This document shows, in pieces, positions 36,043 through 36,989 of a stretch of 64,000 nucleotides of DNA (the stretch's first letter is position 1; each line of letters begins with the position of its first letter). This DNA is from Escherichia phage vB_EcoM_ACG-C40. Under the pieces are notes generated by a model. It had not been told where the DNA came from. It ran no database searches and worked only from the letters and a program-made list of their open reading frames with translations. Location of the stretch: the sequence record NC_019399.1; one strand, 5' to 3'. Position numbers and translations under genes: made by a program.

Positions 36043-36118
36043 TGGTCGAGGCAGTAGGGATCGAACCTACGACCCAGGACTTAGAAGGTCCTTGCTCTTC
36101 CTTCTGAGCTATGCCCCG
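36043..36118 (-). tRNA. tRNA-Arg (anticodon UCU)
   Basis: hand-folded cloverleaf; 7-bp acceptor, GCTC/GAGC D-stem, loop CTTCTAA, T-loop TTCGATC, CCA encoded. Confidence 0.8.
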
Positions 36119-36122
36119 TAAT

Positions 36123-36198
36123 TGGGGTGACCGATGGGAGTCGAACCCATGACTACGAGAATCACAATCTCGAGTTCTACCAACTGAACTACGGCCAC
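36123..36198 (-). tRNA. tRNA-His (anticodon GUG)
   Basis: cloverleaf with loop TTGTGAT, discriminator C, CCA encoded; no encoded G-1. Confidence 0.65.
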
Positions 36199-36312
36199 AT
36201 TAATACCTACTCCAACAATCATGATGTCTTCACACGAAATTAAGAGAAGAGTGATCAGTTCAACCCCTATAATCGCGTCAAGTAGATATTAATGTGACAG
36301 TTGTCACAAATT

Positions 36313-36387
36313 TGGCGGACGTGATAGGATTCGAACCTATAACCAATCGCTTAACAGGCGATCGCTCTGCCATTGAGCTACACATCC
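36313..36387 (-). tRNA. tRNA-Asn (anticodon GUU)
   Basis: perfect anticodon stem ATCGC/GCGAT, loop CTGTTAA, T-loop TTCGAAT, CCA encoded. Confidence 0.7.
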
Positions 36388-36391
36388 AAAT

Positions 36392-36478
36392 TGGTGGGGA
36401 GTGATGGAGTCGAACCACCCGAGTCGCAATGACAATGAATTTACAGTCCACACCGCTACCTCTACGGGATAACTCCCC
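36392..36478 (-). tRNA. tRNA-Tyr (anticodon GUA), class II
   Basis: 87 nt; acceptor GGGGAGT/ACTCCCC; loop CTGTAAA; long variable arm; T-loop TTCGACT. Confidence 0.65.
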
Positions 36479-36490
36479 TAATTCATAATT

Positions 36491-36565
36491 TGGTGGCCCT
36501 GGGTGGAATTGAACCACCATCTGGCGATTATGAGTCGCTTGCTTGAACCTTCCAGCTACAGGGCC
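36491..36565 (-). tRNA. tRNA with CAU anticodon (Ile2 by T4 position, or Met)
   Basis: acceptor GGCCCTG/CAGGGCC; loop CTCATAA; CCA encoded. Confidence 0.7.
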
Positions 36566-36566
36566 T

Positions 36567-36642
36567 TGGTGCTGATTGACGGAATCGAACCGCCGACCTT
36601 CTCATTACAAGTGAGTTGCTCTACCTACTGAGCTAAATCAGC
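36567..36642 (-). tRNA. tRNA-Thr (anticodon UGU)
   Basis: 76 nt cloverleaf; loop CTTGTAA; T-loop TTCGATT. Confidence 0.8.
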
Positions 36643-36647
36643 AAAAC

Positions 36648-36737
36648 TGGCGGAGGCGATAGGATTTGAACCTATGAGTCGCCGGAGCGACTGCCGGTTT
36701 TCAAGACCGGTGCATTAAACCACTCTGCCACACCTCC
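36648..36737 (-). tRNA. tRNA-Ser (anticodon UGA), class II
   Basis: 90 nt; loop CTTGAAA; long variable arm; 2 nt from the tRNA-Pro 3' end. Confidence 0.8.
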
Positions 36738-36739
36738 AG

Positions 36740-36813
36740 TCTCCATACAAGGATTTGAACCTTGGACCTCCTGATCCCAAATCAGGCGCTCTACCAAACT
36801 GAGCTACACGGAG
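36740..36813 (-). tRNA. tRNA-Pro (anticodon UGG); CCA not encoded
   Basis: loop TTTGGGA; T-loop TTCAAAT; 3' end followed by CT then tRNA-Ser, a dimeric precursor arrangement. Confidence 0.8.
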
Positions 36814-36823
36814 TAAATTGAAT

Positions 36824-36897
36824 TGGAGCGGATAATGAGAATCGAACTCACATCATCAGATTGGAAGTCTGAGGTAATGCCATTATACGATATCCGC
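36824..36897 (-). tRNA. tRNA-Gly (anticodon UCC)
   Basis: 74 nt; GCGGATATCGTATAATGG...; loop CTTCCAA; resembles T4 tRNA-Gly as recalled. Confidence 0.85.
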
Positions 36898-36902
36898 AAA
36901 TT

Positions 36903-36989
36903 TGGTGCGAGAAGTGGGACTCGAACCCACAAGGAAATCATTCCGCAGCATTTTAAGTGCTGTGCCTTTACCAATTTGACCATTCTCGC
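36903..36989 (-). tRNA. tRNA-Leu (anticodon UAA), class II
   Basis: 87 nt; GCGAGAATGGTCAAATTGG...; loop CTTAAAA; long variable arm. Confidence 0.85.

Follow-up and report, generated by a model that had tools for sequence, protein, structure and literature searches.

The tRNA operon of phage T4 (NC_000866) runs in the order Gln-Leu-Gly-Pro-Ser-Thr-Ile-segB-Arg-rnaD-rnaC, and its eight tRNAs, Gln, Leu, Gly, Pro, Ser, Thr, Ile and Arg, are the set that an earlier note on the present DNA had correctly given for T4. In phage T2L, tRNA-Tyr and tRNA-Asn have been known since 2008, and homing by SegB replaces the entire Met-Tyr-Asn-Arg block of that phage (PMC2330249). SegB cuts tRNA genes with a preference for tRNA-Asn, the T2L tRNA-Asn gene being its preferred site, and recognizes a conserved motif in the T-arm of tRNA genes (PMC2330249). 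The tRNA region is dispensable for the growth of T4 (PMC2330249), so that any benefit derived from it must be conditional.

Experiments in related phages connect several of these tRNAs with host defence. The Septu system EcB88 cleaves tRNA-Tyr in its variable arm, and plating against it is restored by overexpression or amplification of the T6 tRNA-Tyr; a T6 mutant devoid of the tRNA-rich region is more Septu-sensitive, and T4, which is without tRNA-Tyr, cannot escape the system, whereas T2, which has this tRNA, is resistant (PMC13096335). Two observations from the same work count against protection by this gene, in that Septu also cuts the T6 tRNA-Tyr, which gives protection only at raised dosage, and T6 with its wild-type single copy is only intermediate in Septu sensitivity (PMC13096335). 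The tRNA-Tyr of T5 counters retron-Eco7 (PMC11555353). The AriB nuclease of the PARIS system cleaves the host tRNAs for Lys, Thr(UGU) and Asn(GUU) at 40/41 within the motif UAAUC/N, which reads UAAUC/A in the host tRNA-Thr(UGU), and the T5 variants of the Lys, Thr and Asn tRNAs rescue infection under PARIS (bioRxiv 10.1101/2025.02.04.636281).

The window analysed here, a stretch of 64,000 nucleotides from Escherichia phage vB_EcoM_ACG-C40 (NC_019399.1), belongs to a Tequatrovirus and is 98.8% identical to phage a51. ARAGORN reports ten tRNA genes on the minus strand at 36043-36989, and their anticodons and order agree throughout with those that the earlier note had derived by hand folding. Nine of the ten score 59-74 bits with the Rfam tRNA model (gathering score 29; E <= 1e-10). 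The tRNA-Tyr gene is not reported by this model, the top match of the clan at that position being tRNA-Sec with 29.9 bits; it forms a good type-II cloverleaf according to ARAGORN, and the T6 tRNA-Tyr has been seen on a northern blot (PMC13096335). An eleventh ARAGORN call, labelled "tRNA-???" (35411-35506), is no tRNA and sits within the homologue of rnaC described below.

In the direction of transcription, the cluster opens with tRNA-Leu(UAA) (36903-36989), which is identical to that of T4, tRNA-Gly(UCC) (36824-36897), which is one nucleotide off its T4 counterpart, and tRNA-Pro(UGG) (36740-36813; 36739-36813 in the ARAGORN call), again identical to T4. The following tRNA-Ser(UGA) (36648-36737) and tRNA-Thr(UGU) (36567-36642) show differences of a few nucleotides from their T4 counterparts on alignment; the former has an encoded CCA, unlike the T4 copy, and the 3' side of the anticodon arm of the latter reads U36-A-A-U-G40-A41. 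Then come a tRNA with a CAU anticodon (36491-36565), the type-II tRNA-Tyr(GUA) with its long variable arm (36392-36478), tRNA-Asn(GUU) (36313-36387), the same gene as in RB14, tRNA-His(GUG) (36123-36198) with discriminator C73, and tRNA-Arg(UCU) (36043-36118). The CAU and Arg genes differ from the T4 genes for tRNA-Ile and tRNA-Arg(UCU). The dimeric layout that had been proposed for the Pro-Ser pair is present and identical to that of T4, with a junction of the form GGAGA-CT-GGAGG (a 2-nt "CU"; TATGGAGA-CT-GGAGG) and no encoded CCA on tRNA-Pro. The CAU tRNA matches E. coli ileY, an annotated tRNA-Ile(CAU), at 60/76 positions, shares an identical anticodon stem-loop with it, and has the acceptor stem GGCCCU; the RB14 record names the identical gene tRNA-Ile. 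It is most likely a tRNA-Ile2, in which case it would carry lysidine and decode AUA.

The genomic position of the cluster is the same as in T4, as is the order of the tRNAs common to the two (Leu-Gly-Pro-Ser-Thr-CAU...Arg), but where T4 has segB the window has Tyr, Asn, a structured RNA and His. The CAU and Arg alleles that set the window apart from T4 are common to T2 and RB14, and the CAU, Tyr, Asn and Arg genes of T2/T2L, RB14 and BECP11 (PMC2330249; AP018813; NC_012638; MW286157) are the same as those of the window. BECP11 has all ten tRNAs of the window plus Gln, whereas in T2 and RB14 Tyr and Asn are present without the module formed by the leader RNA and His; all three retain tRNA-Gln, which the window does not. 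Phage T6 has Tyr without Asn or His, with segB after Tyr, and is without Pro and Ser, while in T2 and OE5505 an ORF stands where Thr would be. Phages a51, MLF4, DCP2 and slur03/08/14 share the allele of the window, namely a predicted HNH endonuclease gene with the same ten tRNAs; over 1.2 kb they are 96.8-98.8% identical to the window, with no difference of substance. An identical arrangement is seen in 17 phage records, and the Tyr-Asn-spacer-His block in 185. The tRNA set, in which the earlier note had seen three additions and one loss relative to T4, is a common version of the T4-family operon, and the same ten tRNAs are already annotated in the record of a51 and in others, an outcome that the note itself had named as refuting its claim.

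The absence of tRNA-Gln had likewise been noted and is borne out by ARAGORN, but its treatment as a property of the tRNA repertoire fails, since alignment with BECP11 reveals that the gene was overwritten. The first 7 nt of tRNA-Gln (TGGGAAT) persist as a remnant at 37611-37617 (minus strand), and a free-standing ORF of 202 aa (36996-37604, minus strand, with its ATG at 37604) stands in for the gene from position 8 to its 3' end, the flanks aligning cleanly with BECP11. The stop codon of this ORF is 6 nt from tRNA-Leu. Its product matches phrog_14736, "HNH endonuclease", over its full length (E 5e-124) and scores 17.3 bits with the Pfam HNH model, under the cut-off of 21.4; the translation contains an H-x13-N-x8-H-type motif, HIDGNNKNHLKSNLRLLCPNCH. 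In 508 records with this tRNA-Leu, the usual first gene abutting it is tRNA-Gln (448 records), whereas the HNH-Leu junction is a minority allele (62 records) that coincides with the 62 carriers of the HNH gene, with conserved flanks. Genomes that are nearly identical elsewhere differ in the presence or absence of the gene at a single fixed site. Judged from these alignments, the loss of tRNA-Gln is collateral damage from a predicted HNH homing-endonuclease gene, tRNA-Gln being missing because this gene replaced it from position 8 onward. Its placement over tRNA-Gln parallels that of segB in T4 at the Tyr/Asn/His site, and it is probably homing endonucleases, cutting tRNA genes and taking their place, that for the most part determine which tRNAs a T-even phage has.

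The operon has the same neighbours as in T4, trna.2-4, ipI and 57B at one end and rnaD, rnaC and e.8-e.5 at the other, and the ORFs match in size and order. Two upstream sites on the minus strand might be read as middle promoters. The first, a candidate T4 middle promoter at 37687-37712, combines ATGCTTTAAG (37712-37703), which resembles the published MotA-box consensus, with TATTAT (37692-37687) after a 12 nt gap, and the stretch is kept in BECP11, where it lies upstream of tRNA-Gln. The second, at 37618-37642, directly 5' of the former start of tRNA-Gln and likewise kept in BECP11, combines TTGCTTGA (37642-37635) with TAATAAT (37624-37618). Downstream of tRNA-Arg, on the same strand, are a 116-aa ORF (35674-36024; phrog_3355) at a place where T4 has no ORF, a homologue of rnaD (T4 species 2; 35677-35558; 87% identity), a homologue of rnaC (T4 species 1; 35551-35412; 98% identity), and an intrinsic-terminator-like hairpin followed by a T-run (35338-35361), which probably marks the end of the tRNA and stable-RNA transcription unit. 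Transcription of the operon probably begins at promoters of the middle type, shortly before the place that tRNA-Gln once occupied, and the transcript would comprise, in this order, the HNH gene, eight tRNAs, the 95-nt structured RNA, tRNA-His, tRNA-Arg, the small ORF, rnaD, rnaC and the terminator, to be processed by host enzymes as in T4.

Two functional classes can be recognized among the ten tRNAs. Seven of them, Leu(UAA), Gly(UCC), Pro(UGG), Ser(UGA), Thr(UGU), Ile(CAU) and Arg(UCU), have a U34 or a lysidine-type C34 and are predicted to read A-ending codons, which this AT-rich phage uses heavily; in 81 ORFs of the window, TTA, GGA, CCA and TCA are found at 30.4, 23.3, 13.2 and 19.6 per 1000 codons, and ACA, ATA and AGA at 18.9, 14.6 and 12.4. 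The role of these seven would be codon supply. The remaining three, Tyr, Asn and His, have the anticodons of the host isoacceptors (E. coli tyrT/V, asnT and hisR), the only ones known in the host for these amino acids, and their anticodon loops (CUGUAAA, CUGUUAA and UUGUGAU) are identical to those of the same host genes. On account of these shared anticodons they fall outside the A-ending-codon logic of the other seven; having G34, they decode what host tRNAs decode and are thus extra copies that bring no new decoding capacity. The likeliest gain from them would be that translation continues when host defences deplete these tRNAs. Our overall reading, in which we place fairly high confidence, is that the locus is a common T-even operon allele that combines codon-supply tRNAs with defence-backup tRNAs and whose content has been shaped by endonucleases.

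The defence-backup role is most likely, on evidence of descending strength; it was established by experiment for a nearly identical tRNA-Tyr, we infer it for Asn (and Thr), and it is speculative for His. The tRNA-Tyr of the window is identical to that of T6 at 86 of 87 positions, the sole difference being one T-stem base, and in both the variable arm and the T arm it matches the T5 tRNA-Tyr exactly. The idea that the extra tRNAs replenish those destroyed by host defences, advanced in the earlier note, is backed for Tyr by direct experiments in the close relatives T6 against Septu (PMC13096335) and T5 against retron-Eco7 (PMC11555353). Unlike T6, the window does not have segB adjacent to tRNA-Tyr, and the SegB-driven tandem amplification by which T6 gains dosage is thus unavailable in cis. 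An explanation in terms of dosage suits Tyr and Asn equally well. For Asn and Thr replenishment the support is indirect and comes from PARIS AriB (bioRxiv 10.1101/2025.02.04.636281), the site cut by this nuclease being substituted in both phage tRNAs, with UAAGC/G in the phage Asn as against UAAUC/C in the host, and UAAUG/A in the phage Thr. The prime PARIS target, tRNA-Lys(UUU), of which escape requires a resistant version, is absent from the window in the ARAGORN search, so that Asn and Thr alone cannot neutralise PARIS. A literature search for a defence mainly targeting tRNA-His or tRNA-Asn gave reports of secondary targeting only, AriB and retron Eco2 having tRNA-His among their minor or secondary substrates. 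On the whole, the anti-defence idea is partly right and already published.

Another possibility is that the three extra tRNAs serve only to increase the decoding capacity for Tyr, Asn and His in an AT-rich phage whose proteins abound in Asn and Tyr, with no role in countering defences. Tyr and Asn codons occur at 46 and 60 per 1000 in the window ORFs (4.6% and 6.0%), compared with about 2.8% and about 3.9% in E. coli, or roughly 1.6 times the host use; the host-like anticodon loops are those that plain extra copies should have, and the other seven tRNAs clearly suit codon supply. Against this, a tRNA-His is carried even though His makes up 1.7% of the phage codons, under the roughly 2.3% of the host, G34 provides no new decoding, 78% of the phage Tyr, Asn and His codons end in U, and T4 grows without tRNAs for any of the three. 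These features, taken together with the defence-specific benefit of tRNA-Tyr in the T6 and T5 experiments, lead us to regard an explanation by supply alone as less likely.

It could also be argued that the content of the cluster reflects nothing but the last homing-endonuclease conversion, with the extra tRNAs as neutral passengers. The one-for-one swaps of tRNAs with endonuclease genes or ORFs of unknown function in T4, T6, T2, OE5505 and the window fit this proposal, as do the recognition of a tRNA T-arm motif by SegB and the non-essential nature of the region (PMC2330249). However, Tyr, Asn and His are nearly invariant, with 261 of 756 records at least 99% identical over the block, tRNA-Tyr is shared at 85-95% identity by phages of unrelated families, the rV5-like and T5-like ones among them, and fitness effects of tRNA-Tyr have been measured (PMC13096335), all of which makes mere passengers a rather improbable account. 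The weakest proposal, raised in the earlier note, is that Tyr, Asn and His replace queuosine-family tRNAs cut by anticodon nucleases of the colicin E5 type, and, although the window supplies three of the four E5 substrates and the general idea has been published as a hypothesis (PMC10264068), it is very improbable given that the fourth substrate, tRNA-Asp, is absent (ARAGORN), that the three loops, including U33-G34-U35, are as in E. coli and have none of the blocking changes that the same work uses as its criterion, leaving the phage copies equally E5-cleavable, that colicin E5 is an inter-bacterial toxin not known to act in phage defence, that in the literature surveyed Tyr is cut in the variable arm and Asn at 40/41 rather than at the wobble base, and that the three genes are not one unit, Tyr being found alone in T6 and together with Asn in T2 and RB14, and His coming as a separate module with the leader RNA.

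The Asn-His spacer that had been reported as 115 nt is present, but measures 114 nt (36199-36312), and it is no plain spacer, as covariation and fold identify in it a conserved structured RNA element of 95 nt (36199-36293, minus strand) which is unannotated. The terminal helix of this element, 14 bp in length, ends at position -1 of tRNA-His. Its sense strand folds with -26 kcal/mol (z -3.2), as against -11.8 kcal/mol (z -0.9) for the antisense strand, and in an alignment of its copies 96.9% of cells are paired, with 9 compensatory pairs versus 3.5+-1.2 in shuffles. Our covariance model of the element (R1) scores the copy in the window at 113.8 bits. The element is found in 354 phage records and annotated in none of them (0/354), and the model has no match in T4, T6, RB14, T5 or rV5. 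A scan of IMG/VR with an exact 15-mer gave 52 loci, 4 of them real, and a gapped pattern hit 5 loci there, 44 in metagenomes and 11 in bacterial genomes, of which the covariance model confirmed 12, none in bacterial genomes. The structured RNA thus appears confined to enterobacterial T4-like phages and one phage of the Vequintavirinae. Just 5' of it lies a small hairpin, UGUGAC-AACU-GUCACA (36294-36309, minus strand), which has a comparable version in STP4-a and is not present in every relative.

Other identities of the spacer were considered and set aside. Rfam 15 gives no match beyond noise (E up to 10) that would make it a degenerate tRNA or a known RNA, and it does not match the known stable RNAs compared with it, T5 RNA III and T4 species 1 and 2. 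A sigma-70 scan finds no promoter on the tRNA strand, and a TTGACG in the spacer is not kept in the Jiaodavirus copies; the sole ATG that could open a small ORF is a TTG in a51.

The adjacent tRNA-His encodes a U at position -1, while alignment with E. coli hisR shows the latter to start with G-1, and an encoded G-1 is normally needed by the E. coli HisRS, which counts against a backup role for this tRNA. A literature search for a phage tRNA-His without G-1 found nothing, and both the structured RNA and the U-1 tRNA-His are possibly new. It is conceivable, though we regard it as unlikely, that the spacer RNA and tRNA-His constitute a mobile two-part module present in several T4-like genera, in which an undescribed stable RNA is coupled to a U-1 tRNA that is unlike every bacterial host copy; the RNA might steer the 5' processing of tRNA-His along an unusual path, or the two together might serve a non-translational role, for instance as a nuclease decoy or regulator.

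As a Tequatrovirus feature that is routinely annotated, the tRNA set itself matters little, and earlier publications cover both the reshuffling by endonucleases and the anti-defence value of the tRNAs (that of Tyr in the face of Septu and retron-Eco7, that of Asn and Thr in the face of PARIS). The window nevertheless illustrates that the eight-tRNA set of T4 is one of several alleles and not the commonest, that a single tRNA can be lost one-for-one to an endonuclease gene, and that the G34 tRNAs come as separate modules. The structured RNA, with its presence in 354 phage genomes, and the G-1-less tRNA-His touch on the old question of the role of small stable RNAs in the tRNA clusters of T-even phages and T5. 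Homology between the 95-nt element and stable RNA III of T5 (T5s01) is rejected, as local alignment is weak, with no detectable sequence similarity, and the covariance model has no match; an analogy between the two remains. The T5 RNA III, of 106 nt, is of similar size, has a long terminal helix that closes a multi-branch fold as does the 95-nt RNA, and lies directly 5' of the T5 tRNA-His, which also has a U at -1.

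ARAGORN recovers ten minus-strand tRNA genes at 36043-36989, with the anticodons and order stated in the earlier note, namely Leu(UAA), Gly(UCC), Pro(UGG), Ser(UGA), Thr(UGU), a CAU-anticodon tRNA, Tyr(GUA), Asn(GUU), His(GUG) and Arg(UCU). Nine of these score 59-74 bits with the Rfam tRNA model (gathering score 29). The tRNA-Tyr is not reported by this model, the best match of the clan at its locus being tRNA-Sec at 29.9 bits; ARAGORN draws it as a normal tRNA with a long variable arm, and 86 of its 87 positions are identical to the T6 tRNA-Tyr, a single T-stem base being different. 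The T6 tRNA-Tyr has been seen by northern blot (PMC13096335). The T4 set is as given in the earlier note, the phage carrying Gln-Leu-Gly-Pro-Ser-Thr-Ile-segB-Arg, and the 2-nt Pro-Ser junction without a CCA on Pro is likewise as described (GGAGA-CT-GGAGG, the same as in T4). Pro is the only tRNA of the cluster that lacks an encoded CCA; that of tRNA-Ser is encoded at 36648-36650, as in RB14, a51 and BECP11, unlike in T4. The gap between Asn and His is present, but its length is 114 nt (36199-36312) rather than 115.

The ten-tRNA set is not unusual and is a standard one among close relatives, which the earlier note had named as an outcome that would refute its reading. With a 1.2-kb query spanning the cluster, 959 phage records were matched, the best being Escherichia phage a51 (Tequatrovirus; 98.8% identity), whose annotation lists the identical ten tRNAs, with an 'HNH endonuclease' placed 5' of Leu. 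The whole query is covered in one piece by 17 records (rows H1-H17 of the match list), including MLF4, DCP2, UTI-E4, KarlGJung and slur03/08/14, and the Tyr-Asn-spacer-His block is found at a coverage of at least 80% in 185 records. BECP11 has the ten tRNAs of the window plus Gln, making eleven, while RB14 runs from Gln to CAU, Tyr, Asn and Arg, T2 has Gln, Leu, Gly, Pro, Ser, an ORF, CAU, Tyr, Asn and Arg, and T6 has Gln, Leu, Gly, Thr, CAU, Tyr and segB. The Met/Ile, Tyr, Asn and Arg genes of T2L were mapped already in 2008; this block is replaced by segB homing, tRNA-Asn being the preferred cut site of SegB (PMC2330249). In the eight-tRNA allele of T4, segB lies at the place of the Tyr and Asn genes of other T-even phages. 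These arrangements indicate that the "extra" tRNAs are ordinary in the T-even group, and the cluster itself is a known, annotated and common T-even allele.

The CAU tRNA (36491-36565) and tRNA-Arg(UCU) (36043-36118) are different genes from the T4 tRNA-Ile and tRNA-Arg of like anticodon, and match the T2/RB14 alleles. The D-arm of the CAU tRNA is unusual, its 3-bp stem carrying a GGAAGGUUCA loop. The tRNA-Tyr gene recurs at 85-95% identity in unrelated phage families (rows H71-H79 of the block search), namely the rV5-like Vequintavirus, the T5-like BF23 and Stokescottia, and records labelled as Campylobacter phages, a distribution that points to its horizontal spread.

Of the explanations for the Tyr, Asn and His genes, replenishment of tRNAs destroyed by host defences is broadly right, having already been demonstrated by others for Tyr and proposed for the rest, but it acts via nucleases other than those named in the earlier note. 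Septu EcB88 cuts tRNA-Tyr in the variable arm; T4, which lacks this tRNA, cannot escape the system, while T2, which has it, is resistant, T6 without its tRNA region is more sensitive, and plating is regained with extra T6 tRNA-Tyr (PMC13096335). Retron-Eco7 is countered by the T5 tRNA-Tyr (PMC11555353), with which the tRNA-Tyr of the window shares its variable arm. The PARIS nuclease AriB has the host tRNAs Lys(UUU), Thr(UGU) and, to a lesser degree, Asn(GUU) as substrates, cutting them at 40/41 (UAAUC|N), and the T5 Lys, Thr and Asn tRNAs are substituted at this site and rescue infection (bioRxiv 10.1101/2025.02.04.636281). The corresponding site reads UAAGC|G in the Asn of the window, as against UAAUC|C in the host, and UAAUG|A in its Thr; tRNA-Lys is absent from the cluster, which therefore cannot neutralise PARIS alone. 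For tRNA-His, the literature search yielded secondary-substrate reports only, for AriB and retron Eco2.

Codon supply fits the rest of the set. Seven of the ten tRNAs read A-ending codons that are heavily used by the phage (per 1000 codons in 81 window ORFs: TTA 30, GGA 23, CCA 13, TCA 20, ACA 19, ATA 15, AGA 12). The CAU tRNA is most likely the AUA reader among these, given that it resembles E. coli ileY, annotated as tRNA-Ile(CAU) (60 of 76 positions identical, with an identical anticodon stem-loop and the acceptor stem GGCCCU in both), and that the same gene is annotated as tRNA-Ile in the RB14 record. The Tyr, Asn and His anticodons and entire anticodon loops are identical to those of E. 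coli tyrT/V, asnT and hisR, so that these genes provide more copies and no new decoding. With codon shares of 4.6% for Tyr and 6.0% for Asn in the window ORFs, demand could explain these two, but it cannot account for His, whose share is 1.7%. The colicin E5 reading, already in print (PMC10264068), is not favoured by the data: the cluster has no tRNA-Asp, the unchanged anticodon loops imply cleavage of the phage copies as well, and Tyr, Asn and His do not pass on as a single unit among relatives.

The absence of tRNA-Gln is explained by a replacement. Alignment with BECP11 shows near-identical flanks around about 640 bp that have taken the place of tRNA-Gln from position 8 onward, through the 3' end, leaving its first seven nucleotides (TGGGAAT, 37617-37611). 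Six nucleotides past this remnant, at 37604, lies the ATG of a 202-aa ORF whose stop is six nucleotides before tRNA-Leu. The GGGA within the remnant is placed like a ribosome-binding site for this gene. Its product belongs to phrog_14736, 'HNH endonuclease', which it matches over the full length (E 5e-124), and scores slightly under the cut-off of the Pfam HNH model (17.3 versus 21.4 bits). The number of phage records with the gene is 62; across 508 records with the tRNA-Leu of the window, the HNH-Leu junction is seen in 62 and Gln-Leu in 448. This pattern is as expected for a free-standing homing endonuclease gene, for which the ORF is a candidate. A similar one-for-one swap has placed an ORF at the position of tRNA-Thr in OE5505 (locus L007, 1673-2155) and T2 (locus L074, 7711-8112). 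The OE5505 ORF belongs to phrog_16521, a family with a weak match to the HNH protein as well, over the C-terminal half of the latter (residues 76-188; E 2e-4), hinting at a common C-terminal, DNA-binding domain, possibly for tRNA-gene DNA.

Upstream of the HNH gene are two minus-strand MotA-box-like motifs with -10 elements (37712-37687 and 37642-37618), which, judged by the T4 middle-promoter consensus, are candidate middle promoters. The sequence 5' of the place once occupied by Gln is also conserved in BECP11, and the HNH gene appears to have been inserted directly 3' of the candidate promoter of the tRNA operon. The motifs are also kept upstream of tRNA-Gln in relatives. At the other end, a 116-aa minus-strand ORF (phrog_3355; 35674-36024) lies between tRNA-Arg and rnaD, which directly adjoin each other in T4. 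There follow, on the same strand, homologues of rnaD (T4 stable RNA species 2; 35677-35558; 87% identity) and rnaC (T4 stable RNA species 1; 35551-35412; 98% identity), and a terminator-like hairpin (35338-35361). The 'tRNA-???' called by ARAGORN at 35411-35506 was rejected as part of the rnaC homologue.

Two features around tRNA-His, the lack of an encoded G-1 and an unannotated structured RNA, offer modest and possibly new leads. The E. coli hisR starts with an extra G-1, the major HisRS identity element, which is genome-encoded in bacteria. The phage tRNA-His aligns from +1 of hisR, with T at -1 (36198-36199, minus) and a C73 discriminator, and its charging by host HisRS is therefore uncertain. 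The T at -1 is found in all copies examined (a51, BECP11, OE5505, KaAlpha, EnC07, id4496 and T5), and the T5 annotation counts it within tRNA-His. In the structural model, U-1 is in the last base pair of the terminal helix of the RNA encoded directly upstream.

This conserved 95-nt leader RNA (36199-36293, minus), located within the Asn-His gap, folds into a 14-bp terminal helix and three inner helices, at -26 kcal/mol (z -3.2) on the tRNA-sense strand versus -11.8 kcal/mol (z -0.9) on the opposite strand, on which several invariant G-U pairs become A-C mismatches. In an alignment of nine distinct variants from five phage groups, 96.9% of the cells pair. Compensatory double changes are seen at nine pairs, against 3.5±1.2 in column shuffles (none of 500 reaching the observed value) and 0-2 in slid-partner controls, statistics that are indicative, not conclusive, as they come from only nine sequence types of related phages. 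The covariation is located in the terminal helix and a 4-bp hairpin. Although blastn finds the leader RNA in 354 phage records, none among the matches listed annotates it, and no Rfam family matches it. A covariance model detects it once in the window and not at all in T4, T6, RB14, T5 or rV5. Among viral and metagenome loci the model confirms another 12 copies; bacterial genomes yield none.

The leader RNA usually lies directly 5' of tRNA-His, together with which it has also reached other genera. It is found between tRNA-Gln and tRNA-His in Karamvirus and Jiaodavirus, and 5' of tRNA-Gln instead of tRNA-His in one Vequintavirinae phage. Gelderlandvirus STP4-a has lost tRNA-His, and a different hairpin stands there in place of the inner one of the leader RNA. 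In T5, the analogue by position is the 106-nt 'RNA III, stable RNA with unknown functions', directly 5' of the T5 tRNA-His, which has no detectable similarity to the leader RNA but, like it, has a long terminal helix.
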